Positions 1-14,115 are shown, numbered from the stretch's first letter. The stretch: DNA of 14,533 nucleotides from Candidatus Woesearchaeota archaeon (GCA_964573185.1 CAZNIQ010000017.1:1-14533), one strand, 5' to 3'. Notes: generated by a model not told the origin, from the letters alone. Translations and numbers: made by a program.

Positions 1-108
1 TTCAAAGAACTTAACATATTCCTTAATAATGAATACTAATAATCTCTCTTCAGAGGGACTTAAAATAAGAGGAATCAAGATGTTTCTATGATGGACGGCT
101 AATGTCAT
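1..108 (-). CDS. hypothetical protein; only the N-terminal 36 codons are in the window (runs off the left edge)
   Basis: Hand translation of the minus strand. ATG at 108-106 is preceded by an in-frame TAA (111-109). The frame then reads MTLAVHHRNILIPLILSPSEERLLVFIIKEYVKFFE and stays open to position 1. An ATTTAAAT element (130-137) is centred ~25 nt upstream, the same geometry as other starts in this window. Too short for the supplied ORF track. Confidence 0.4.
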   Translation of the reverse strand, partial: MTLAVHHRNILIPLILSPSEERLLVFIIKEYVKFFE

Positions 109-129
109 TTAAATTATATGTTTTTTGGA

Positions 130-137
130 ATTTAAAT
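130..137 (-). promoter_or_regulatory. candidate TATA box for the 1..108 gene (leaderless geometry); overlaps the last base of the D box of the upstream sRNA
   Basis: ATTTAAAT is centred ~25-26 nt upstream of the ATG at 108. This matches the archaeal TATA-to-TSS spacing if the mRNA is leaderless. Confidence 0.3.
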
Positions 138-245
138 CAGTAATCCGCCGTTTTCCACATCTTTTTTGTACCCCCGCTCCAGGAACGGGTATCATTTTTC
201 AACCCGTCGGCGGAGCGGGGTTCAGGAAGCCGTCCTGCTCATCAT
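137..245 (-). ncRNA. atypical/composite box C/D-type sRNA with a large structured insertion between D' and C'
   Basis: Minus-strand layout:
- C box aUGAUGA (245-239).
- 13-nt spacer GCAGGACGGCUUC (238-226).
- D' CUGA (225-222).
- 49-nt G+C-rich hairpin (220-172).
- UACAAAAAAG.
- Degenerate C' AUGUGGA (160-154).
- 13-nt spacer AAACGGCGGAUUA (153-141).
- D box CUGA (140-137).
The C box begins with the stop codon of the 242..829 gene. The C' box is weak (5/7 match to RUGAUGA) and the D'-C' distance is far above the usual 3-9 nt. Confidence 0.55.
172..220 (-). other. G+C-rich hairpin capped by a K-loop (putative L7Ae-binding module), embedded in the sRNA above
   Basis: Read on the minus strand:
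- 9-bp lower stem CCCCGCUCC/GGAGCGGGG.
- 3x3 internal loop GCC/CCU.
- 7-bp upper stem GACGGGU/ACCCGUU. Its G-U pair would be a C-A mismatch on the plus strand.
- 11-nt loop UGAAAAAUGAU.
The loop can form tandem sheared G-A/A-G pairs (G193-A199, A192-G200) plus a U191-U201 pair stacked on A190-U202. That is the C'/D'-type K-loop pattern. ACA follows 2 nt after the stem (169-167). Confidence 0.6.
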
Positions 246-829
246 TTACATATCTCTTCTATTTTTTCTTTAGATTTATAAAATAAAGAAGGTTTCTCCA
301 AAACTAAAGCACCACATTTTTTAATTATATATTTTATTACTTCTTCACTTCTTGAAAGAATCCTTGGATTTCCATAAACAAATTCTACAGCTTTTATGTA
401 AGGTAAACTCAGTTCTCTTGCTAAAATTTCTATTTTTCTTTTAATAGTATAAGGATTGTATGTTAATATTTTTGGAAATTCTAGGATTAAGTTTTTTATC
501 TCGTCTCTACTTTTATTAAAAATACTTTTCAACTCCTTTATTTTATTCTCTGTAGTAGAGGGATCATACGTTAACAAACTGGGAGCGGTAGCAACCGCTT
601 TTCTGCCAAACATATCAATTAAATATTCAATTCTGTGTTCTAATGTTGTCTGATCTAAAGTGAAAACTTCTGGATGTCTTAATAATTTAGGCAAATCTGA
701 AGGTAATATGTAATGGGCCAATAATTCTAATTTTTTACGTATATTTTCCTCTGTATAAGAATTTTTACTTTTCTTTTTCCTTAACTTTTGTATTATAATT
801 TTTATTAAATCTTCATACATCTGGTTCAA
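242..829 (-). CDS. helical-repeat protein resembling mTERF-type repeats (putative nucleic-acid-binding protein)
   Basis: 195-aa ORF from the track. It has five tandem ~25-36 aa units, each opening with xP(E/S/K/R)(V/L/I)(F/L)(T/S/Y)...: HPEVFTLD, APSLLTYD, FPKILTYN, NPRILSRS, KPSLFYKS (Pro at aa 53, 83, 119, 155, 180). Each is followed by an amphipathic I/L-rich segment (EHRIEYLIDMFG, ENKIKELKSIF, KRKIEILAREL, EVIKYIIKKCG). It overlaps taw1 by 17 nt. The stop UGA is fused to the C box. Confidence 0.7.
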   Translation of the reverse strand: MNQMYEDLIKIIIQKLRKKKSKNSYTEENIRKKLELLAHYILPSDLPKLLRHPEVFTLDQTTLEHRIEYLIDMFGRKAVATAPSLLTYDPSTTENKIKELKSIFNKSRDEIKNLILEFPKILTYNPYTIKRKIEILARELSLPYIKAVEFVYGNPRILSRSEEVIKYIIKKCGALVLEKPSLFYKSKEKIEEICK

Positions 830-1811
830 CAGATTTTATTATAGGATCTATTGGATTTTTAATATTTCTTAAAACTACAACCCTAGAAGGTTCATGCTCA
901 TCCATGTATTCAAATCCATCAAGATATTCCAAGAGTTTTAAGGCAAATTCTTTAACATCCTTATGTTCGGGTTGGTTTTCAGGTTTTAGTCTATACCTTG
1001 AATATCCTAAATACATATAAGCTTTAACCTCTACAAAATGCGGATTCATCCTTTCAATTATTTCAGCCCATTCATCTAAGTTCTTGTCATTTATTCCTTT
1101 AATTAATGTTATTCTTGCAACTCTTCTAGTTTTAGCTTTAGATAATAACCTTAGTGTTTTATTAAATCTTTCCCAAGCCTTAGGTATTACCGGTCTTGAA
1201 ACATACTCAAATATTTCTTGATTTGATCCTGTAAATGAAATATAGAATTGTGTTGGTAAAGCATTCTCTTCTATCAACCTTTCAACCATTTCAGGTACGG
1301 TACCATTTGAAACTATGAATATTGATTTAACCTGTTTCCAATTTTCTTTGATATACTTGATAGCTTCTGGCATCTTAGGATATAATAAAGGCTCTCCCAT
1401 TAAAGAGAAGGTTACATGAGACGGTTCTAAAGCTTCTTCAAGCATTTTCTTATCTACATTCGGATTTCCTTTAAAACCAATTAATAACTGCTTTCTCAAT
1501 TCTTTTAGTTTTTCTAACAATTCTCCGGGATCAGGGAACCATTCGGGGTGTTCTAATAATTCTAAAGTTTCTTTTTGAAACTCATGATTAGGTCTCCAAC
1601 AATAAATACATCTGTGGGTACACCAGAATAAAGCTAAAGAGATTTGCATACATCTATGAGTATCAATTCCGTAAAACTTATGTTTATAACAGAATCTTTT
1701 ATGTCTTAAGGCTTCTTTCGTCCAATGACATATCGCGACTCCAGCAGTCTTGTAAATACGATAACCAGCTTTCTCCATAGCTTCCTTAATTTTAGGATCT
1801 ATCTGAATCAC
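813..1811 (-). CDS. taw1: tRNA 4-demethylwyosine synthase (radical SAM; Taw1/TYW1)
   Basis: The CTHRCIYCW motif is the radical-SAM CxxxCxxC cluster. The upstream CYKHKFYGIDTHRCMQ block is typical of TYW1/Taw1. Length is 332 aa. The start is GTG at 1811 (the track shows it as M). Confidence 0.9.
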   Translation of the reverse strand: MIQIDPKIKEAMEKAGYRIYKTAGVAICHWTKEALRHKRFCYKHKFYGIDTHRCMQISLALFWCTHRCIYCWRPNHEFQKETLELLEHPEWFPDPGELLEKLKELRKQLLIGFKGNPNVDKKMLEEALEPSHVTFSLMGEPLLYPKMPEAIKYIKENWKQVKSIFIVSNGTVPEMVERLIEENALPTQFYISFTGSNQEIFEYVSRPVIPKAWERFNKTLRLLSKAKTRRVARITLIKGINDKNLDEWAEIIERMNPHFVEVKAYMYLGYSRYRLKPENQPEHKDVKEFALKLLEYLDGFEYMDEHEPSRVVVLRNIKNPIDPIIKSVEPDV

Positions 1812-1830
1812 GTTAAATTTTAGACTTTAA

Positions 1831-1839
1831 TTATTATAA
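1831..1839 (-). promoter_or_regulatory. candidate TATA box for taw1 (leaderless geometry) inside the 35-bp divergent intergenic region
   Basis: The minus strand reads TTATAATAA, centred ~24 nt upstream of the GTG at 1811. A mirror A/T element TTAAATTTTA (1813-1822) lies ~29 nt upstream of the pdaD ATG at 1847. Confidence 0.35.
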
Positions 1840-1846
1840 GGCTTTC

Positions 1847-2305
1847 ATGTTTCGTTACGTATTTTTTACAAAAGGTATAGGTATACATGAGGATCCTTTA
1901 GTTTCTTTTGAGCTAGCTTTAAGAGACGCTGGTATAGAATTTCTAAATTTAGTACCAGTTTCCTCTATTTTGCCACCCAATGTAAAGATAATTCCTAAAG
2001 AAGAGGGAATAAAACTTTTGAAACCAGGTCAAGTGGCTTATGTTGTTCTAGCTAAATATACTTCTAGTGAAGAGGGAAAAGAAATTTTTGCATCTATTGG
2101 TTATGCTATTCCAGAAGAGGAACATTATGGTTATTTCACAGAATATTATGGATATTGGGAAGAAAAACATAAAACGTATGCAGGTGAAATAGCAAAATAT
2201 CTTTTGGAATCTAAAGGAATTAAAGTAAAAGAATATGGAACTATATATGTAAAAGCAAAAGTAAGGAAATATACAACTGTTATTGCAGCTGCAGTGTTAA
2301 TCTAA
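1847..2305 (+). CDS. pdaD: pyruvoyl-dependent arginine decarboxylase proenzyme
   Basis: 152 aa. FTKGIG...SFELALRDAGIE..NLVPVSSILPP contains the conserved self-cleaving Ser-Ser site of the PvlArgDC family. Size and layout match archaeal PdaD. Confidence 0.9.
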   Translation: MFRYVFFTKGIGIHEDPLVSFELALRDAGIEFLNLVPVSSILPPNVKIIPKEEGIKLLKPGQVAYVVLAKYTSSEEGKEIFASIGYAIPEEEHYGYFTEYYGYWEEKHKTYAGEIAKYLLESKGIKVKEYGTIYVKAKVRKYTTVIAAAVLI

Positions 2306-2352
2306 TCAGCACTTCGTTGTATCTTCATTTTTCTGCTCACGGGCTTCATCAT
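2306..2352 (-). ncRNA. box C/D sRNA (double guide)
   Basis: Minus-strand layout:
- C box aUGAUGA (2352-2346).
- 12-nt guide AGCCCGUGAGCA (2345-2334).
- Degenerate D' GAAA (2333-2330).
- 2-nt linker AA.
- C' UGAAGA (2327-2322).
- 12-nt guide UACAACGAAGUG (2321-2310).
- D CUGA (2309-2306).
It exactly fills the convergent gap between the pdaD stop (2305) and the S2P stop (2349-2351), and that stop is the first UGA of the C box. Confidence 0.75.
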
Positions 2353-3392
2353 AAAGATAGAATTAGATTTATGATAACTAATAATAAAACTATCGTTGAA
2401 AGTATCTTATAGAGTCTTTTATTAACTAAAGTACTTAAGACAATACCACCATCTAAAATAAATATCGGTAATAGATTTGCGATCCCTATACCTAAGGATA
2501 TCACAAAAATCATTCTTAAAATTCTATAAAGATAATATAAAAAGTAATTTGTAATTTCATATTTCTGTTCGAGTAGGACGCCTAACCAAGGTTTTCCAGA
2601 TTTATTTCCTAAAATTACTGTAAAATTTCCTTTATCTGTAATAATAGTTATCTTTTCACCGGGTTTAAACCTATAGAAAATTTCCTTAAAATCCTGAATA
2701 GTTTTTATAGTATAATTATTTATTCCGATGATTGTTGCATTTATAGGTAATATTTCAGCTGGAGAACCTTTTGTAACATTTATTATCTTTAAACCTTCAA
2801 ATTTGATAAAATTAACAGGTAAAAAGAATAAGGGAAAAATTAATAGAGAAAGAAGAATGTTTCCAAAGGGACCCGCAAAAGCAATAGTTCTTATAATCTT
2901 TTTATCAGAGTTTTTAAGCTGATTCTCATCTGGTTCGGTATAAGCTGCAAGAAAAGGGCCTATCAGAGCTATCCCTAATCCTTTCAGCCTTATATTGTAA
3001 TACCTTATGAAGATTGCGTGAAAGATCTCGTGAACAAAGGCTGCAATAAATATAGCAACAACTGTTTCGATAAAGGGAAAATAATAACCTCCTATTCTAA
3101 TACCGGGTATAACTGGTAAAATTTTGAAAACAGTGTTTTTGTAAAAAATATAATCAACTATTCCTTTAATTACGTAAAAAACCGAGAAAAGCATACCTAA
3201 GAAACCAATAATATTAACTGCATAAGATAAATATTTTAGGAACTTTTTATGATTTTGAACAAATTTGTCTATAAACTCCCCTTTAGACAACTCTAAAAGA
3301 AAAATAAAGCCATATCTTTTTACTTTATGTTTATATTTGTAAAAAACTAGAAATATCAATAAATAGAATATTAGAGGAAGAAAAAATTCCAT
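2349..3392 (-). CDS. M50-family site-2 protease (RseP-like) with an internal PDZ domain
   Basis: HEIFHAI (HExxH) lies in a TM helix and NLLPIFILDGG (NxxPxxxLDG) is near the C-terminus. A PDZ-like segment (GLKIINVTKGSPAE...GEKITIITDKG) sits between them. The protein is polytopic and hydrophobic. The start abuts the L40e stop with 0 nt gap. Confidence 0.9.
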   Translation of the reverse strand: MEFFLPLIFYLLIFLVFYKYKHKVKRYGFIFLLELSKGEFIDKFVQNHKKFLKYLSYAVNIIGFLGMLFSVFYVIKGIVDYIFYKNTVFKILPVIPGIRIGGYYFPFIETVVAIFIAAFVHEIFHAIFIRYYNIRLKGLGIALIGPFLAAYTEPDENQLKNSDKKIIRTIAFAGPFGNILLSLLIFPLFFLPVNFIKFEGLKIINVTKGSPAEILPINATIIGINNYTIKTIQDFKEIFYRFKPGEKITIITDKGNFTVILGNKSGKPWLGVLLEQKYEITNYFLYYLYRILRMIFVISLGIGIANLLPIFILDGGIVLSTLVNKRLYKILSTIVLLLVIINLILSL

Positions 3393-3594: not shown

Positions 3595-4137
3595 TTACTT
3601 TAAAGAATATTTCTCAAGATCTTTATATAACGGGCCTTGTGGTCTTAGAATGCTTTGCTTTAATTTAAACTCTTTTACTTCAAAATATCCAAAATCTATG
3701 TTCTTTAATTCATCAATAATTTCCAAGAATTTCTCTTTGTTAAGTACTTGCTTTATTCTTGCGATCGTGATATGTGGTACATATTCTTTTTCCAAGGGAA
3801 ATCCAAATTTTTTACATATAATATCCACCTTCCTTTGCAATTCTAACAACTTTTCTTTTCCTTCAGCAATGCCTAACCATAAAACTCTTATCCTATTAAA
3901 ATCTGGAAATGCCCCTAAACCTTTGACCCTTATTTTAAATTTCTCAAATTCGATAGATTTTAGAGCTTCCTGTATTTCCTTTACTTTTGGTGGCTGGAGT
4001 TCTCCTAAAAATTTTAATGTTATATGTAAATTTTCTTTTTCAACAAACTTCGCTCTAATAAATTTTATTTTATTATATATTTTAAATATTTCTTCTTTTA
4101 ATTCATCAGGCAAATCTATTGCTATGAATACTCTCAT
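3595..4137 (-). CDS. thpR: RNA 2',3'-cyclic phosphodiesterase / 2'-5' RNA ligase (LigT/ThpR, 2H family)
   Basis: 180 aa with the two 2H-family HxT motifs, HITLKF and HITIAR, at the expected spacing. Its ATG overlaps the upstream stop (ATGA at 4134-4137). Confidence 0.85.
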   Translation of the reverse strand: MRVFIAIDLPDELKEEIFKIYNKIKFIRAKFVEKENLHITLKFLGELQPPKVKEIQEALKSIEFEKFKIRVKGLGAFPDFNRIRVLWLGIAEGKEKLLELQRKVDIICKKFGFPLEKEYVPHITIARIKQVLNKEKFLEIIDELKNIDFGYFEVKEFKLKQSILRPQGPLYKDLEKYSLK

Positions 4138-4505
4138 TTTCCTTTCTTAAGAATTTTTCTTAAAAACTCTACGAACCATAATAGCGCTTTGTTCCTACCC
4201 TCTGCTTTCTTTAAAAGTTCTTTAATACTTTCTAACTCATTTTTAATTATATAAATGTTATTTTTGCTCTGATTTATAGATCGAATCATTTCTTGATAAA
4301 CTCTAAAATCAATAGTTGTATGTGTAGCAAGATATTTTACTAAAGCTTCTACATCGTTTACGAATTTTAATAATCTGTCATACCTATGTATTTCATTCTC
4401 TATTTCTTTTATTATCTTCTTTTCAAAGGAATCTATAAAATGTATTTCCTTTTCAATGTCTTCCAAATCAACGATAAGCCTTCTTAAAACTTCCCTAATA
4501 TCCAT
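4134..4505 (-). CDS. hypothetical coiled-coil protein
   Basis: 123-aa ORF that is K/E/I-rich with heptad-like periodicity. It is translationally coupled to thpR through an ATGA overlap. A strong TATA element lies ~25 nt upstream of its ATG. I recognise no family motif. Confidence 0.7.
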   Translation of the reverse strand: MDIREVLRRLIVDLEDIEKEIHFIDSFEKKIIKEIENEIHRYDRLLKFVNDVEALVKYLATHTTIDFRVYQEMIRSINQSKNNIYIIKNELESIKELLKKAEGRNKALLWFVEFLRKILKKGK

Positions 4506-4508
4506 AAA

Positions 4509-5546
4509 ATGGAATGGTTTAAGGATTATATAAATGCTGTTTACCCTGTTACGAAAGGAAAATATAGAATTCCTTTAAGCATTACAGAATTCCCTATAGA
4601 GAAAGAAAAATTTGAGGAAATAAAAGAAAAATTATCAATAATTTTTGAAAAGATAAAGGAAATAGTTTTCTATTTTTTAGATAAGAATCTAAAAGGATAT
4701 TTAATAGATGATTTTAGAAAAGAATTATACCTAAGAATTTATGAAAATTATAATTTTAAATTTAAAGGTGTTGTAAGATTTGATTTAATTAACTTTAAGT
4801 TAATAGAAATAAATGCAGATGCAGTTGAAGGTGTTATACAATTAGATATAACTGCTGGGTGGTTTACTAAGAATTTGGATTTTAAGGGAAAACCGCAGTA
4901 CAATACACCTTTATTTAAAGAATTATTTGATGGAAAAGCAATTATAATTTATCCGGAAGGCTATAAATTTGTTGATGAATATTATTTAGAGGCTAAAGAA
5001 TTGAATACAGAATATATTTCTGAAAAGGAGTTTTATAGTAAATTTGAAGAAATAAAAAGTAATTATGGTATCTTTAGAAGAGCAATTGATATTGATAAAG
5101 TTAAAAACATAGAACCATGGTTAGAAAAGCAAAATGTAAATGATATTTTATTTACAATAATTGGAAATAAAGCTAATCTAGCTTATTTATACGATTTCAT
5201 GGATGACGAATTAAAGTATGCTATTGATATTGTTGCGAAAACGTCTTTAAAACCAGAATTTAAAAGGTACGTTTCAAAACCTCCGTTTGGAACTTGGGGA
5301 AATGTAAAGTTTAACGAAAAAGTTGAAGGATGGGTTTATCAAGAATATATTGAAGTACCTCAAGCAAAAATAAAATATATTGATATAGACGATAAAATTA
5401 AAGAAGATGTTTTCTATTACGATTTTGATCCATATGCGTTTTATGATAATAAATTGAAGTTTGGTAATATATTGTTAAGGTTTTCAAAAAGTAAAATATT
5501 AAATGTGGCAAAAGGAGGTGGTGTAGGTTTTTGGACTATCTCTTAA
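4509..5546 (+). CDS. glutathionylspermidine-synthase-like (pre-ATP-grasp) amide ligase family protein, substrate unknown
   Basis: 345 aa. VRFDLINFKLIEINADAVEG resembles the R-x-D...K-l-l-E-x-N-a-D signature of the GspS/ATP-grasp family. The C-terminal part (VSKPPFGTWG...GWVYQEYIE...LLRFSKSKILNVAKGGG) fits the same fold family. Recognition is by eye only. Confidence 0.5.
   Translation: MEWFKDYINAVYPVTKGKYRIPLSITEFPIEKEKFEEIKEKLSIIFEKIKEIVFYFLDKNLKGYLIDDFRKELYLRIYENYNFKFKGVVRFDLINFKLIEINADAVEGVIQLDITAGWFTKNLDFKGKPQYNTPLFKELFDGKAIIIYPEGYKFVDEYYLEAKELNTEYISEKEFYSKFEEIKSNYGIFRRAIDIDKVKNIEPWLEKQNVNDILFTIIGNKANLAYLYDFMDDELKYAIDIVAKTSLKPEFKRYVSKPPFGTWGNVKFNEKVEGWVYQEYIEVPQAKIKYIDIDDKIKEDVFYYDFDPYAFYDNKLKFGNILLRFSKSKILNVAKGGGVGFWTIS
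4526..4534 (-). promoter_or_regulatory. candidate TATA box for the 4134..4505 gene, embedded in codons 6-9 of the divergent 4509..5546 gene
   Basis: The minus strand reads TTTATATAA, centred ~25 nt upstream of the ATG at 4505. The two divergent start codons (4505 and 4509) are separated by only 3 bp, so promoter elements must lie inside the opposing CDS. Confidence 0.4.
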
Positions 5547-6408: not shown

Positions 6409-7951
6409 ATATTTTTTCTAAGACCTTCTCTTTATCTACATAAAATTCATTTACTATTCTTGTAAACTCTCTATAATCTCTTATCTTATTTCTTACCATC
6501 CATTGTAACACTTCCTTTCTTTCTTTTATATCTTCTCTCACATCTCTTAATACAAACCCTCTTTTCCTTGCCAACTTCTTAAACAATTCTTTTATCTCCG
6601 ATTCTACAAAGGTATCGTTTTCAGGATCCCAAACAAAAGCTTTGTTCGTTTCAACAGTGCTATATTTATAATTTACTTTTGTAACTTCTGTAACTTCCTT
6701 AATTCTTCTAGCTGAAGGAGAAATTTCTTTAGCATGGACTATAAAAATAAAGAGATCTAGATGTTCTATTAGTTCTATAGGTAAGTTTATTGGAGGTGTA
6801 GTTAATCTCCTAACAACGGATGTCACGGAATCTGCGTGAATAGTTCCCATGCAAGCATGTCCAGAAGCCATTCCTTGAAATAAAACGTAAGCTTCTTTTC
6901 CTCTCACTTCTCCAACTATAACGTAGTCTGGCCTTTGTCTAAAGGATTCCTTTAATAAATCGAACATCGTAACCTCACCATACCTTTTACCAGTTTCATC
7001 TGGGGGCCCAAAACCTTCCCTAGTTACTGTAGGTATCCAATTCTCATGATATAATTGAATTTCTCTTGTATCTTCAATGGAAATTACCTTTGCTTCCTTT
7101 GGAATAAACATAGCAATAGCATTTAATAATGTAGTCTTTCCAGCACCGGTCTCACCTCCTATTAAGATATTAGCTTTATGTTCTACCGCCCACCAGAGGT
7201 AAGCAGCAATGTCTACATTCATAGTACCATTTAGTATTAAGTCAACTGGTGTCCAGGGTTCCTTCCTAAACTTTCTTATAGTAAATGTCGGACCCCTTGT
7301 TGTGATATCAGAAGTATAAGTTGCGTTAACTCTTGAACCGTCAGGTAGAATACCATCCAAGTAGGGTTCTGCATAAGATATATATCTTCCAGCTTTTTGC
7401 GCAAGTTTTATTACGAATTTTTCTAATTCCTCATTTGAATTAAAAATAATATTAGTCTTTAGGGATCCGTATTTTGAATGATAAACGAATATCGGAATTC
7501 CAACACCATCACAAGAGATATCTTCAATAAAAGGATCATGCATTAAGGGTTCTATTTTACCTAAACCTATAGTATCTCTTATAATGTAATAGACGAGCTT
7601 TAGATATTCCGATTTCTTAGGATGGTAATTTAATTCTTTCAAAATTTGATTAATCTTTTCTACAATGTATTTTTCAGCATCTTTTCTATCTAAGTTTACA
7701 ACTTCAATATCTACTAGGTCGTATAATCTATCTTTTACTATTTCTAAGATCTCTTTTTCTTTCTCATTTAGCGGGGGCTCTATTACGTAATATCTTAGTT
7801 CTTCAGAATGGGGGTCCCAAAAGATATAAGCATACGCAAAACCGTGAATTAGAGGATATATTACTTTCAGCTTAAAAAGATCTTCTTTTTTCTTAATTGT
7901 AGGTAAATTTGGAATTTTCGGTATAGATTCAAATAGTCTGAATATATCCAT
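6395..7951 (-). CDS. type II/IV secretion-family ATPase (FlaI/ArlI/PilB-like)
   Basis: 518 aa. Walker A is GGETGAGKTT, the Asp/Walker B box is RPDYVIVGEVRG and the His box is GHACMGTIHA. The N-terminal domain is typical of archaeal FlaI-type ATPases. Confidence 0.9.
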   Translation of the reverse strand: MDIFRLFESIPKIPNLPTIKKKEDLFKLKVIYPLIHGFAYAYIFWDPHSEELRYYVIEPPLNEKEKEILEIVKDRLYDLVDIEVVNLDRKDAEKYIVEKINQILKELNYHPKKSEYLKLVYYIIRDTIGLGKIEPLMHDPFIEDISCDGVGIPIFVYHSKYGSLKTNIIFNSNEELEKFVIKLAQKAGRYISYAEPYLDGILPDGSRVNATYTSDITTRGPTFTIRKFRKEPWTPVDLILNGTMNVDIAAYLWWAVEHKANILIGGETGAGKTTLLNAIAMFIPKEAKVISIEDTREIQLYHENWIPTVTREGFGPPDETGKRYGEVTMFDLLKESFRQRPDYVIVGEVRGKEAYVLFQGMASGHACMGTIHADSVTSVVRRLTTPPINLPIELIEHLDLFIFIVHAKEISPSARRIKEVTEVTKVNYKYSTVETNKAFVWDPENDTFVESEIKELFKKLARKRGFVLRDVREDIKERKEVLQWMVRNKIRDYREFTRIVNEFYVDKEKVLEKIYESS

Positions 7952-8115
7952 TATATATTTTTAGGAATGATAGTATAAAAAGTTCCATTTACTACTTCAA
8001 AGGAAATACTTCTAAAATTATAACTAAAGATAATAGTTTTTGCTAGAAAAATAAAAGAAATTATCAAAGTGAAATAAATTATATAGGTAAGGATAGTCTC
8101 AATAGTTACTCTCAT
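7951..8115 (-). CDS. small membrane protein (54 aa) with a pilin-like N-terminal hydrophobic helix
   Basis: Hand translation: MRVTIETILTYIIYFTLIISFIFLAKTIIFSYNFRSISFEVVNGTFYTIIPKNI. Its ATG overlaps the upstream stop (ATGA, 8112-8115) and its TAA overlaps the FlaI-like ATG (TAATG, 7949-7953). The ORF therefore exactly fills the apparent 160-nt gap in the operon. Below the length cutoff of the ORF track. Confidence 0.55.
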   Translation of the reverse strand: MRVTIETILTYIIYFTLIISFIFLAKTIIFSYNFRSISFEVVNGTFYTIIPKNI

Positions 8116-8597
8116 CTAATTTCTATTCCATTTATTGTTTTTACAAACAGCAACCTGCATCTTTTACAATCTATATTGCAACTTCTGCTTACATTTGTTT
8201 TATAAATAAAAGCAATTCTTCCTACACAGCCATAATACAAATTAGGATAAACTTCTGTAAAAGTATTGTTACTAAAATAAGCTATTTTCCCATTGTATAT
8301 TACTGTTTTATTGTTTAAATCTAATTTTCCTTCACAATTTTTGCTTAGAATAAATAGAATTCCGTTATTTAAGCATATTATCTGTACATCTGATAATTCA
8401 TAATAAATTGAAGAATTGTAATAGAGATGAGAAAGGAAATTTAAAGTATTTGCCAAATCATAGATATCGTTCATCCTTTCCTTTAAAAGAAATTCCGCTC
8501 TTATCTTTGGGGAGAGATAATAGAAGAAAGTGAAGGAAGAAAAAACTATTGTTAAAATTATTAATGTTGTTATTACAAGATCTATAAACTGTTCCAC
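8112..8597 (-). CDS. hypothetical secreted/membrane-anchored protein with an N-terminal hydrophobic helix and a Cys-rich C-terminal part (possible pilin-like or accessory subunit)
   Basis: 161 aa. The N-terminus is MEQFIDLVITTLIILTIVFSSFTFFYYL, followed by an N/Y/S-rich domain containing 6 Cys. The start is GTG. It lies directly upstream of, and is coupled to, the FlaI-like operon. There is no clear class III signal-peptide cleavage motif. Confidence 0.65.
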   Translation of the reverse strand: MEQFIDLVITTLIILTIVFSSFTFFYYLSPKIRAEFLLKERMNDIYDLANTLNFLSHLYYNSSIYYELSDVQIICLNNGILFILSKNCEGKLDLNNKTVIYNGKIAYFSNNTFTEVYPNLYYGCVGRIAFIYKTNVSRSCNIDCKRCRLLFVKTINGIEIR

Positions 8598-8614: not shown

Positions 8615-8980
8615 TTATTTGAGGTGTTCTAAGGCGTTTACCAAAGCGGCAACTAATCCCAAGATCGCTGCTAACAAATATCCTAATGCTACAAGATATT
8701 GGGCATATACTTCAGATATTCCTGCTACTTTGAATGGTGTTACTAACAATGTTGAAGCTGCAGCAAATACTGCAAACAAAGCTGCTGCTTGTAACCACCT
8801 TTTAGCTTTTTCGGATAAACCTAATCTCTCTGCTAAGGGAACTAGTGCTGAAAATCCAAATGCTACAGTTAATCCCAACAGAAATGGTCCTAATACTGGT
8901 AGTGAATACAACCCTAAAGCGTTTGCTACACCTGCTGCAACTAACAAAGCTATCAAATCCAAGTTCTCTCTCCAGGCCAT
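8615..8980 (-). CDS. small Ala/Leu/Gly-rich polytopic membrane protein, unknown function
   Basis: 121 aa with about four hydrophobic segments separated by AERLGLSEKAKRW and TPFKVAG. It is co-oriented with the pilus-like operon and sits 17 nt upstream of it. The antisense ORF 8619..8990 is low-complexity N/A/T-rich, which looks like a GCN-codon mirror artefact. Confidence 0.6.
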   Translation of the reverse strand: MAWRENLDLIALLVAAGVANALGLYSLPVLGPFLLGLTVAFGFSALVPLAERLGLSEKAKRWLQAAALFAVFAAASTLLVTPFKVAGISEVYAQYLVALGYLLAAILGLVAALVNALEHLK

Positions 8981-9039: not shown

Positions 9040-11052
9040 TTAAAAAGGAGGTTTTAATAGTTCCTTTAATTTAGTTGGAAGTTCCTTAATATCTATCCTT
9101 ATCTGTTCCATAGTATCTCTAAATCTTATAGTTACTGTATTGTCTTCTAAAGTCTGATAATCTATTGTAATACAATATGGAGTTCCTATTTCATCCTGTC
9201 TCCTATATCTTTTACCAATTGATCCTGAATCATCATAATAAACTCTAAAGCCTTTTTTTCTCAATAATTCATATGCTTCTTTCGCCTTTTCAACCAACTC
9301 CTTTTTGTTTGAAAGTAATGGAAACACAGCAACTTCTATAGGAGCCAAATATTCTGGTAACTTTAATACTATTCTTATCTCGTTGTTTACTTTTTCTTCT
9401 GTATAAGCTAGATATAGTAAAGCAAAGATATTTCTGTCCACACCAAAGGAAAGCTCTAATTCGACTGGTAATATTCTTCTTCCATCTGGTTTGGTTATTA
9501 TAAATCCTAAATCTTCTGAAAGAATTAAATGATTGTATAAATCGTAACCAACAAGTACTTTTTCCTTATTCTCTAATACTTTTTCCAAAGCTTTCCTAAC
9601 TTTTTTACTTTTTATTTTATCCAAATCTTCTTTCTTCAATTCTATAGCTCTAAAATGTATGCCTCCAACTTCTACCCATCCTAGTTCATCTAAATATACT
9701 TCTACATCAAAGTGGTATTTATTGTAAAAGGATCTTTCTTCTTCAGAAAGCTCAAAGAATCTGAATCTTTCTTTTGGTATTTTTAATACATTTAAATAAA
9801 ATTCTTGAACCTTATATAAGAAGTATAAATAGAATTTCGGATAACCTCTTCTTTCTAATTCTTCTAAGGATTTTTCAAAGAAATCTTTTCCCTTTTCCCT
9901 GTCTTCAACCAAAAGAACATTTATTTTTTTGTCTTTAACTTTTTCAAATTCTTTATCAAAGGGATTGTCCTCTAAATCGAAGAAGATCTGTAGTTCTGCT
10001 TGAGTAAATTCTCTTAATCTTAATAAAGCTTGTCTTGGAGAGATCTCATTCCTAAAAGCTTTTCCAATAACGAATAGACCTAAAGGTAATCTAGCTCTTT
10101 GAAAGTTTATTTCTTTTGGAAAATTAACATAGGGTCCTTGTGCAGTTTCTGGTCTTAAGAACATTCTGTTCTCCAACACATCTTTATAAGATTTGTAGAT
10201 ATTATAAGCCAGCTCTTCAAAATCTATATTAGTGTTAATTTCCTTACATTTATCTAATATTTTTTCAAATTCTTTATCCAAATCTACGTTTTCATACTTG
10301 TCAATATTTTTTTCAACAATTTCTTTTGGATCCCTATCCTTTATATAAAAATAAGCTTTTCTTCCCAGAACATCATATTTTAATACTTTTGTAAAATCTT
10401 CATTGAAAATATAAACAATAAAATCTTTTTCTAATAAATATAATTCTTCTTTTTCAAATACTTCTTTTAACAAAGTAATAAATTCTAATCCGTCTTCTGT
10501 TTCAAAATTGTATTTTATTTCTTTTAGCTTCTTAAGATATTTTTCTTGAGTTTCAAATATTTTTTTCAGCTCATTTAAATATAGGAAAAGATTTCCAGAT
10601 TCTACCCCTACAAATATAGGAAACATTAAATTAAATAATTTAACTTTAGATAATTTTGACCCACATTCCGGACAAACAATTTTTCCTTCTTCAAAGATTC
10701 TATTCATTTCTTCTATCGTGAGACTCTCAGCCTTAATTCCTAGTTTTTCCTCTATAAGTTTATCAGCTCTAAACCTATGACCGTTGGGACATTCTGTAAC
10801 AGGATCTACGAATAACTCCAAATGTTTAGAAGCTCTGAATACGTTTTCATGCATAATTTCACAAGGTTCTATTTCCCAAACGTTATCAAATAAGGAATAG
10901 AAGAATTTTCTAAATAGATTTTCAAGCTTTCTTTTCAAAGCAGTTCCTAGAGAACCGTAATCATAAAATCCAGCTTTACCGCCATAGATTCCACAAGACT
11001 TATAAAAGAAACCCCTCCTTTCTGCAAGATTTACTACTTTCTCAAATTTCAT
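9040..11052 (-). CDS. glyS: glycine--tRNA ligase (class II, archaeal/eukaryotic alpha2 type) with lineage-specific insertions
   Basis: Motifs seen: RRGFFYKSCGIYGG, FNLMF, LRPETAQG, FRNEISPR, FTQAE, ELSFGVDR and an anticodon-binding C-terminus (IGKRYRRQDEIGTPYCITID). At 670 aa it is, from recollection, about 90-100 aa longer than typical archaeal GlyRS. Confidence 0.95.
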   Translation of the reverse strand: MKFEKVVNLAERRGFFYKSCGIYGGKAGFYDYGSLGTALKRKLENLFRKFFYSLFDNVWEIEPCEIMHENVFRASKHLELFVDPVTECPNGHRFRADKLIEEKLGIKAESLTIEEMNRIFEEGKIVCPECGSKLSKVKLFNLMFPIFVGVESGNLFLYLNELKKIFETQEKYLKKLKEIKYNFETEDGLEFITLLKEVFEKEELYLLEKDFIVYIFNEDFTKVLKYDVLGRKAYFYIKDRDPKEIVEKNIDKYENVDLDKEFEKILDKCKEINTNIDFEELAYNIYKSYKDVLENRMFLRPETAQGPYVNFPKEINFQRARLPLGLFVIGKAFRNEISPRQALLRLREFTQAELQIFFDLEDNPFDKEFEKVKDKKINVLLVEDREKGKDFFEKSLEELERRGYPKFYLYFLYKVQEFYLNVLKIPKERFRFFELSEEERSFYNKYHFDVEVYLDELGWVEVGGIHFRAIELKKEDLDKIKSKKVRKALEKVLENKEKVLVGYDLYNHLILSEDLGFIITKPDGRRILPVELELSFGVDRNIFALLYLAYTEEKVNNEIRIVLKLPEYLAPIEVAVFPLLSNKKELVEKAKEAYELLRKKGFRVYYDDSGSIGKRYRRQDEIGTPYCITIDYQTLEDNTVTIRFRDTMEQIRIDIKELPTKLKELLKPPF

Positions 11053-13361: not shown

Positions 13362-13384
13362 TCAGCTGGCTCCGTAATCATCAT
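13362..13384 (-). ncRNA. single-guide box C/D 'half-mer' candidate fused to a stop codon
   Basis: The minus strand reads aUGAUGA (13384-13378; the first UGA is the stop of 13381..14115), then the 12-nt G+C-rich guide UUACGGAGCCAG (13377-13366), then CUGA (13365-13362). I found no C' box or second CUGA in the ~130 nt downstream on that strand. Confidence 0.45.
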
Positions 13385-14115
13385 TTTTCAGTTTTAACGA
13401 GGTTCTTCACTATAGCTTTTATCTTTTCATCTTTTACATTCTTTAAAATCCAACTCCAGACGTCCGTTGAAAAATCATAATTCCTTAATGGTAGCAAGTT
13501 CTTGAAATAGTAAAAATATTCATCATCTTTTGCTCTGGGACTCTTTCTTTTTAATTTACTCTGTATTTTGTATTCAAAGACATTTTGATCAATCAACCCC
13601 AATTTTAAACTTATTAATCCATTTGGAACAAAATAATCTAATAAAGCTTCACAAAACTTTGGCGGTAATTCTATATTGTTTAGCTCAAATAAAATATGCA
13701 AAATTTCATGTAAAAATACTGCAATAATCCTCTTTTCTTCTTTTTCATTTAGACCTATAATAATTACAGGATCTCCTTTTATTATTTTTGCCAATCCTAA
13801 TAATTCTTCATTTAAAAGGGGATATGCTAAAACAACCAATCTTTCTGGAATTTTTTCAATATTAAAAGCCTTCTTAAACAAAGGTAAAGCTCTATTAAAA
13901 TATTCTTTGAATTTTTCTTCAAATACACTGGCTAATAAAATTAAATCTTCTTCAATATCCAAATTATTCAAATCTAAATTATGTATATTCTTTAATTTCA
14001 TAGCTAAATCTTTATTTAAAAGATAGATTATATATAATAAGTAAGGATTTTCCTTTGCATAAAAGTTTATATAAAAAAGAAGCGCCTCCTTGCAAGGTAT
14101 AACTTTAATGTTCAT
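13381..14115 (-). CDS. putative zinc metallopeptidase (HExxH protein), family unknown
   Basis: 244 aa. It has a single HExxH motif in a hydrophobic helix (IIAVFLHEILHILFE). It overlaps the upstream aminopeptidase gene by 11 nt, which suggests co-translation. I recognise no other family signature. Confidence 0.7.
   Translation of the reverse strand: MNIKVIPCKEALLFYINFYAKENPYLLYIIYLLNKDLAMKLKNIHNLDLNNLDIEEDLILLASVFEEKFKEYFNRALPLFKKAFNIEKIPERLVVLAYPLLNEELLGLAKIIKGDPVIIIGLNEKEEKRIIAVFLHEILHILFELNNIELPPKFCEALLDYFVPNGLISLKLGLIDQNVFEYKIQSKLKRKSPRAKDDEYFYYFKNLLPLRNYDFSTDVWSWILKNVKDEKIKAIVKNLVKTEK

Follow-up and report, generated by a model that had tools for sequence, protein, structure and literature searches.

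The Locus and the Gene Model

The DNA analysed here, referred to below as the window, is a stretch of 14,533 nucleotides (nt) deposited under Candidatus Woesearchaeota archaeon (GCA_964573185.1, CAZNIQ010000017.1:1-14533). On its minus strand lie a gene of the mTERF family (242..820), which encodes 192 amino acids (aa) and is the subject of this analysis, the taw1 gene upstream of it (813..1811), and a C/D box small RNA (sRNA) at its 3′ end (135..247). The product of taw1, the upstream gene of this putative operon, is the 4-demethylwyosine synthase (TYW1/Taw1), as indicated by a TIGR03972 score of 375.5 bits against a cut-off of 318 and by its Radical_SAM and Wyosine_form domains. The order taw1, mTERF gene, and sRNA is kept in the window, on two sister contigs (L001 and L002), and in a more distant lineage (L003 and L004), and so is an 8-nt overlap between the two genes.

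A preliminary description of this DNA placed the mTERF open reading frame (ORF) at 242..829, which gives 195 aa when it is read from a TTG. The ORF is real: between its alleles, the ratio of nonsynonymous to synonymous substitution rates (dN/dS) is 0.17–0.28, and this purifying selection is that of a coding gene. Its start, however, had to be moved. The N-termini of the three closest homologues all read MY[EK]DLI (MYEDLI or MYKDLI), which corresponds to an internal methionine, and the gene-caller records for the homologues give a product of 192 aa; the start is therefore placed at the ATG at 820..818, with the TTG at 829 as an upstream alternative in the same frame that the homologues do not use. 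An overlap of 17 nt with taw1, claimed on the basis of the TTG, shrinks accordingly to 8 nt: taw1 stops at 815..813, and the two genes share ATGTATGA (813..820, minus strand). The layout is the same in L002 and L003, with the junction reading ATGTATGA in the former, as in the window, and ATGTATAA in the latter. Such an overlap is consistent with the translational coupling of taw1 and the mTERF gene.

Repeats, Fold, and Family Membership

The motif P-x-[ILVF]-[ILVF]-[TSY] occurs five times in the protein, and all five of the motifs first reported are present: PEVFT at aa 50, PSLLT at 80, PKILT at 116, PRILS at 152, and PSLFY at 177 (192-aa numbering), with spacings of 30, 36, 36, and 25 aa. This array is not random, since five such motifs did not occur together in any of 100,000 shuffled versions and the shuffle maximum, four, was reached once. 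The AlphaFold2 model, built from just three sequences, has a predicted local distance difference test (pLDDT) of 92.8 and a predicted template modelling score (pTM) of 0.84. It consists of a long helix, a medium helix, and a five-residue helix, repeated five times, plus an N-terminal helix and a C-terminal cap. In the DSSP assignment of this model, each proline-led motif is the short third helix that follows two longer ones.

The repeats, all encoded on the minus strand, are placed by the model and the motif positions and, after the first, also by a comparison of alleles (see below). Repeat 1 (aa 24–54; 659..751) runs helix, helix, and short helix PEVFT; repeat 2 (aa 57–84; 569..652) has PSLLT at its end, a short helix in which all five positions are invariant in three alleles; repeat 3 (aa 87–120; 461..562) ends in PKILT and repeat 4 (aa 123–156; 353..454) in PRILS; and repeat 5 (aa 159–181; 278..346), which is short, ends in PSLFY and is followed by the C-terminal capping helix. 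In the predicted structure, the five repeats stack as an mTERF solenoid. The protein is basic, with an isoelectric point of 9.2–9.6, and it has no presequence, the model starting with a structured helix at residue 3.

The preliminary description had read the repeats as those of an mTERF and had proposed a profile search and a structure prediction by which this could be checked; both bear it out. The Pfam profile PF02536 (mTERF) matches with an E-value of 2e-10 and 40.5 bits, well past its gathering cut-off of 23.1, aligning aa 22–161 of the 195-aa form with profile positions 138–279, while no match was found in NCBIfam. With the single sequence as query, a PDB search reached human MTERF3 (3m66) at 4e-4. 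A profile made from seven archaeal sequences reached MTERF3 at 6.9e-19, MTERF1 entries at about 1e-12, and also the Tetrahymena mitoribosomal mTERF mS93, and nothing outside the mTERF family was matched by this profile in the PDB. The predicted fold is that of MTERF3 and MTERF1 and not that of TPR or HEAT proteins: when the model was compared with the PDB using Foldseek, the top 18 matches were all mTERFs, with MTERF3 and MTERF1 at a structural similarity (TMq) of 0.72–0.74.

Could the protein be something other than a true mTERF, that is, a generic alpha-solenoid that matches by composition, or else a eukaryotic or bacterial contaminant or an assembly artefact? It is rich in lysine and consists entirely of helices, proteins of this class easily give spurious repeat matches, and the contigs are metagenomic. 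Against this, the significant sequence and fold matches in the PDB are all mTERFs, and the designed toroids, TAL effectors, and other solenoids that come next in the Foldseek comparison are far worse (E > 0.2). Moreover, the 8-nt overlap with an archaeal taw1 is present in three independent assemblies (ENA, JGI, and NCBI), and the GC content of the mTERF gene is the same as that of its contig. On fold, profile, and synteny, both a TPR/HEAT-like solenoid and contamination were rejected, and this explanation can be given almost no credence. It is very probable, by contrast, that the protein is both a bona fide, minimal, five-repeat member of the mTERF family and archaeal in origin.

The Source Organism and the Distribution of the Protein

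The archaeal nature of the contig follows from the relatives of a 670-aa class II synthetase encoded at 9040..11052 (minus strand). This is the glycyl-tRNA synthetase (GlyRS), and its best named relatives are those of Nanopusillaceae metagenome-assembled genomes (MAGs), Candidatus Nanoclepta minutus, and Nanoarchaeum equitans (NEQ417). Other genes of the window, which encode Taw1, a pyruvoyl arginine decarboxylase, LigT, RNase J, an archaeal-type secretion ATPase, a membrane protein, and a DUF357 methyltransferase, fit this assignment and a small archaeal genome. The GC content of the window is 30%, with a single GC-rich island, which is a small RNA, and a related locus carries an archaellin gene. 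Judging from these sequences, the source is a Nanopusillaceae-like nanoarchaeon of the thermophile type.

The closest relatives of the GlyRS are 57–64% identical to it and cover 96–99% of its length, those with names being from Nanopusillaceae and a Nanoarchaeota MAG. Most archaeal GlyRS proteins (about 500 aa) cover only some 55%, which implies that about 170 aa specific to this lineage were added, by extension or insertion, in front of the catalytic core or inside it. Five ORFs of 121–345 aa in the window lack a Pfam match: 4134..4505, 8112..8597, 8615..8980, and 13381..14115 on the minus strand and 4509..5546 on the plus strand.

The protein itself is extremely rare. A word-indexed search of 5.8 billion clusters returned only the window's own protein and two homologues, P0002 (66% identical) and P0003 (53%). 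A profile search of 1.84 billion representatives gave 1030 proteins at E ≤ 1e-3, and only P0002 and a further protein, P0004, fell below 1e-30. P0004, of 182 aa, is 34–37% identical to the query and belongs to one small cluster of four sequences; a word-indexed search with it found only P0004 itself. Altogether, just seven small mTERFs of this archaeal type, in two clades, were seen in billions of sequences. With the seven-sequence profile, the archaeal set scored 288–312 bits, each as one domain, and the others in the top 150 scored at most 66 bits per domain; no comparably close small homologue was present among the 150 best-scoring of the 1.84 billion representatives. Two scans of the GTDB species genomes with back-translated motifs revealed no further locus, and a scan of JGI metagenomes found only the contig already known. 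The loci of the P0004 clade have no gene in common with the window, L001, or L003.

Several of the non-archaeal matches could be placed. P0005, P0088, and P0095 lie in bacterial gene contexts and P0105 in a Clostridia MAG; P0012 is phage-like; and the eukaryotic matches come from a brown alga, Paulinella, a diatom, a grass, and a contig with split Serinc genes. The bacterial mTERF-domain matches reach no more than about 27% identity, over single repeat blocks.

The preliminary description had considered the family overwhelmingly eukaryotic and organellar. An archaeal member is indeed unexpected, but the family is not strictly eukaryotic: bacterial proteins termed pTERFs were described in 2024, in a study which stated that no prokaryotic homologue of the mTERF motif had been known before and in which all the pTERFs are bacterial (PMC11417379). 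A full-text literature search on mTERF in archaea, in Nanoarchaeota and DPANN, and in Asgard archaea found no description of an archaeal mTERF. What is new, then, is an mTERF member in an unexpected domain of life; automated Pfam labels are already in the databases, with precomputed PF02536 labels present for P0001–P0004.

The Probable taw1–mTERF–sRNA Unit

The taw1 gene, the mTERF gene, and the sRNA look like one expression unit since they are on the same strand, the 8-nt overlap is conserved, and the sRNA lies at the 3′ end of the mTERF gene. Co-expression with taw1, which had been proposed earlier, is therefore plausible, as the overlap is found in three genomes, albeit at the shorter length. 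The gene upstream of taw1 varies, being that for arginine decarboxylase in two genomes and that for a RIO1 kinase in the third, and L001 has an additional ORF of 125 aa downstream. In the window, taw1 (minus strand) and the pyruvoyl arginine decarboxylase gene (plus strand) are divergent, with about 35 nt between their start codons (1811..1847), a gap so small that either the promoters overlap or the transcripts are leaderless.

The sRNA starts within the final codons of the mTERF gene. In the window and in L001, the TGA stop (244..242) lies within the C box AUGAUGA (245..239), and the stop codon is thus shared with the sRNA, as the preliminary description had it. The C box is followed, on the same strand, by the D′ guide GCAGGACGGCUUC (238..226), the D′ box (225..222), a GC-rich hairpin (220..172) and then ACA (169..167), the D guide AACGGCGGAUUA (152..141), and the D box (140..137). 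In L003, the overlap goes further (6618..6639): the mTERF ORF runs through the C box and the D′ guide and stops at the TGA of the D′ box, such that its last six residues, DEQDGT, are encoded by sRNA sequence.

The sRNA exists in two forms with the same two guides. That of L003 (6618..6666) is plain, spans about 50 nt, and has a normal C′ box. The other form, shared by the window and L001 (859..975) with 100% identity, is about 110 nt long and has the GC-rich hairpin in place of the C′ region. The hairpin comprises a 10-bp stem, a 2 × 2 internal loop, a 7-bp stem, and an 11-nt UGA...UGAU loop, followed by GU-ACA. This ending looks H/ACA-like, although an internal loop of this size would seem to leave too little room for a pseudouridylation pocket. 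The predicted folding energy is −40.1 kcal/mol (z −3.2), and Rfam gave no match at gathering score, only weak C/D matches with E-values of 2–3.

As to its targets, the D guide AACGGCGGAUUA is similar to its counterpart in N. equitans sRNA6 (AAAGGCGGAUUG), which is predicted to direct methylation at position 2393 of 23S rRNA. The D′ guide GCAGGACGGCUUC is complementary to GAAGCCGUCCUGC. From its sequence, GAAGCCGUCCUGC could be read as the anticodon (GAA), G37, and the 3′ strand of the anticodon stem of tRNA-Phe, which would link the sRNA to the substrate of Taw1. No tRNA genes were found in the window or the related loci.

Between the sRNA and the downstream sequence, the window contains a 67-nt segment (65..131) that is absent from L001 and L002, the flanks being otherwise 98–100% identical. 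On the plus strand, this segment contains ATGATGGACGGCT, which is similar to the C box and part of the D′ guide of the sRNA, and it may be the remnant of a duplicated sRNA.

Divergent Alleles

The comparison of the window with its sister contigs revealed a divergent patch with sharp boundaries inside the mTERF gene (296..796, minus strand). Against L002, all 999 nt of taw1 are identical, there is one mismatch in 797..2811, and there is another in 132..295, which includes the sRNA. Between these flanks, from 296 to 796, identity drops to about 71%. In the gene as a whole, there are 169 substitutions in 579 nt and no indels; 87 of the 169 are at third codon positions, the synonymous rate (dS) is about 1.4, and dN/dS is 0.17. 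The contrast with the neighbours is also seen at a greater distance, since relative to the L003 lineage, Taw1 is 87% identical and PFOR-beta 90%, while the mTERF protein is only 54–56% identical, with a nonsynonymous rate (dN) of 0.39 as against 0.07 for Taw1.

The variation is unevenly spread along the protein. Among three alleles, 23 of the 25 positions in the proline-led short helices are invariant, and repeats 1, 4, and 5 show almost no constraint on their two long helices. The most variable part is repeat 4, in whose long helices only 2 of 14 and 1 of 10 positions are invariant.

These sequence patterns indicate that recombination put an old, divergent allele in place of the gene's interior and that, in addition, the gene evolves at a generally high rate. 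The observation comes from metagenome assemblies and one strain pair, in which a mosaic path through strain variants is possible; the P0002 allele and its flanks were, for their part, assembled independently in the ENA and JGI data.

One interpretation is that the protein is a variable one, kept polymorphic by conflict and acting, for example, on foreign (viral) or host nucleic acid in an ectosymbiotic lifestyle, in which case the replacement of alleles would reflect diversifying or balancing selection. The patch of 500 nt lies exactly within the gene, differs by about 29% between flanks that are identical over 2 kb on one side and 160 nt on the other, the three alleles are 54–66% identical as against 87–100% for the neighbours, and the phyletic distribution is patchy and accessory, all of which would suit this interpretation. 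It is nonetheless highly improbable. With a dN/dS of 0.17–0.28 and a saturated dS, the alleles are old and under purifying selection rather than recently diversified; the neighbours are housekeeping genes; and the single strain pair, with its possible mosaic assembly, counts here too. Searches for the corresponding machinery were also negative. PADLOC gave only noise, with no significant match to a defence family, and membership of a defence system was therefore rejected. A viral origin was likewise rejected, there being no BFVD fold match at E < 0.3. As for a diversity-generating retroelement, the substitutions are of all types, enriched at third positions, and spread over some 500 nt, which is not its signature, and no reverse transcriptase domain is present in the ORFs of the window.

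What the Protein Might Do

Every characterised mTERF binds nucleic acid along the groove of its solenoid, and by analogy it is likely that the archaeal protein does so too. The best overall explanation, and probably the right one, is that of a nanoarchaeal mTERF that appears to form one unit with taw1 and the sRNA. From the genomic context, namely the overlap with taw1 and the presence of the sRNA, its most likely target is structured RNA, and it would then serve as an accessory or recruitment factor in the modification or maturation of tRNA or rRNA. A precedent exists in mitochondria, where MTERF4 delivers the methyltransferase NSUN4 to the rRNA; by analogy with this pair, the archaeal mTERF might be made in step with Taw1. 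A link between its role and RNA modification as such can be suggested only tentatively, with the chances somewhat against it.

Several observations weigh against a role of this kind. Firstly, the mTERF gene seems, from the sequences searched, to be absent from N. equitans (the proteins of which were included in the companion collection used for the GlyRS search), Nanopusillus, and Nanoclepta, where Taw1 must work alone; the gene appears to be accessory even inside Nanoarchaeota. Secondly, in the P0004 clade, the mTERF gene is free-standing: it has an upstream region of its own, its stop is followed by a T-rich stretch, and its neighbours are unannotated genes and one for an archaeal-type S-layer protein, with no taw1 among them. 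Thirdly, the mTERF alleles are only 54–66% identical where Taw1 is 87–100% identical, which is unexpected for the partner of an invariant enzyme and an equally invariant tRNA. Fourthly, the homologue from Clostridia (L017 and L018) precedes PcrA-LigA. Fifthly, the stop codon shared with the sRNA, taken in the preliminary description as a hint of an RNA-related role, is weak evidence for one, because most C/D sRNAs of N. equitans overlap mRNAs, several of which encode RNA-modification enzymes (PMC3491384), and overlaps of this sort are ordinary in Nanoarchaeota.

Members of the family that bind double-stranded DNA also weigh against a role on RNA, and MTERF1 is one of them. So are pTERF1 and pTERF2, the only characterised prokaryotic mTERF-like proteins, which bind double-stranded DNA with nM affinity and recognise motifs that differ with the arrangement of the repeats (PMC11417379). 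The chief alternative is thus that the archaeal protein is, like these, a sequence-specific binder of double-stranded DNA acting as a terminator, a roadblock, or a regulator. The divergent alleles would then recognise different DNA sites, and the position next to taw1 would be incidental or else the protein would stop convergent transcription at the junction of the sRNA and the PFOR-beta gene. In keeping with this, the best structural matches include DNA-bound MTERF1, and the variation between alleles in the long helices, with an invariant short structural helix, is the pattern expected for a changing specificity. The free-standing gene of the P0004 clade fits as well, as does the arrangement in L003, where a convergent gene lies right beside the mTERF gene and its sRNA, the two stop codons being about 28 nt apart. 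On the other hand, no candidate binding site was identified, five repeats would have a short footprint, and both the 8-nt overlap and the 3′-end sRNA are conserved. Many eukaryotic mTERFs, moreover, bind RNA, and among the fold matches these include MTERF4 and the mitoribosomal proteins 6z1p_BY, 8a22_Xb, and 7pkt_N. On balance, DNA binding of this kind is rather unlikely.

If action on structured RNA is retained, the mTERF is best seen as an accessory, lineage-restricted, fast-evolving component and not as a core subunit of Taw1. An obligate subunit is argued against by its apparent absence elsewhere in nanoarchaea, by the lack of linkage to taw1 in the second clade, and by its rapid divergence beside an invariant enzyme.

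An RNA theme also appears in bacteria, where some mTERF genes have RNA-modification genes as neighbours. In L016 (4100..9874), two mTERF genes that overlap each other come after a bacterial MnmG/GidA gene, all on one strand; in L011 (932..3990), an mTERF gene lies beside a divergent gene for an RsmB/F (NSUN-type) methyltransferase; and in L015 (6001..8567), TsaD is found about 0.6 kb downstream of an mTERF gene, on the opposite strand. These examples are anecdotal, and the sample is too small for statistics.

A bolder proposal is that it was prokaryotes which, in ancient times, first paired an mTERF solenoid with an RNA-modifying enzyme. In that case, the nanoarchaeal mTERF would be a dedicated subunit of Taw1 that recruits the substrate or chaperones RNA, possibly also for the co-transcribed C/D ribonucleoprotein, and it would be the archaeal counterpart of MTERF4–NSUN4, with the bacterial MnmG–mTERF and RsmB/F–mTERF neighbourhoods as further instances; the organellar mTERFs of eukaryotes would descend from such prokaryotic modules. 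As it stands, this proposal is improbable.

Significance

The mTERF family is central to the expression of organellar genes, where it takes part in transcription termination, ribosome assembly, intron splicing, and tRNA maturation, and it has been regarded as an innovation of eukaryotes, with the first, distant relatives from bacteria appearing only in 2024. With a canonical and minimal mTERF of five repeats in Archaea, the family reaches the third domain and gains a very small, probably thermostable model for studies of structure and binding. The linkage with taw1 and a C/D sRNA yields a concrete and testable hypothesis as to the role of a prokaryotic mTERF. The replacement of alleles marks the mTERF gene as being among the fastest-evolving loci of nanoarchaeal strains that are otherwise near-identical, and its sharp boundaries offer a lead on how repeat proteins switch specificity. 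This replacement and the recurring neighbourhood of RNA-modification genes are the leads most worth following. Even if the function proved mundane, a known family would still have gained in taxonomic range.

Comparison with Known mTERF Systems

The closest structural counterparts are human MTERF3 (MTERFD1, PDB 3M66) and MTERF1 (3MVA and 3N7Q), which share with the archaeal protein the PF02536 domain, the three-helix repeat with its proline-led short helix, and the solenoid itself. At the TMq values given above, the root-mean-square deviation is about 3–4 Å over some 195–205 columns, and yet sequence identity is only 16–20%. The constructs of MTERF3 and MTERF1 that were crystallised contain seven to eight repeats. 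With its five repeats in 192 aa, the archaeal protein is thus considerably smaller than the roughly 270–340 ordered residues of these constructs and, unlike them, it is archaeal, encoded in an operon, and without an organellar presequence.

The pTERF1 and pTERF2 proteins from Bacillota MAGs are likewise prokaryotic and consist of tandem mTERF-like three-helix repeats, 3–11 in number, and the best non-archaeal matches of the archaeal profile include bacterial mTERF-domain proteins, one of which comes from a Clostridia MAG. However, pTERF1 is reported to lack the canonical Pro8 and Leu positions and to be 9–18% identical to eukaryotic mTERFs (PMC11417379), whereas in the archaeal protein the canonical motif is retained and the Pfam score exceeds the cut-off.

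In MTERF4–NSUN4 (PDB 4FP9 and 4FZV, and mitoribosome assembly intermediates), an mTERF is paired with an RNA-modifying enzyme, as may be the case here, where the pairing is genetic and consists of the overlap with taw1. MTERF4 is among the Foldseek matches, which include 4FP9 and the mitoribosome intermediates, at a lower similarity (TMq 0.46–0.53). The archaeal partner would be a radical-SAM tRNA enzyme and not a 5-methylcytosine methyltransferase, and the linkage is absent from the second archaeal clade.

Finally, the mitoribosomal mTERFs (Tetrahymena mS93, 6Z1P_BY; Polytomella, 8A22_Xb; Chlamydomonas, 7PKT_N) have the same fold and bind rRNA. They are eukaryotic and organellar and are weaker matches to the archaeal model (TMq 0.48–0.61), but, bound as they are to rRNA, they show that the family works on structured RNA.

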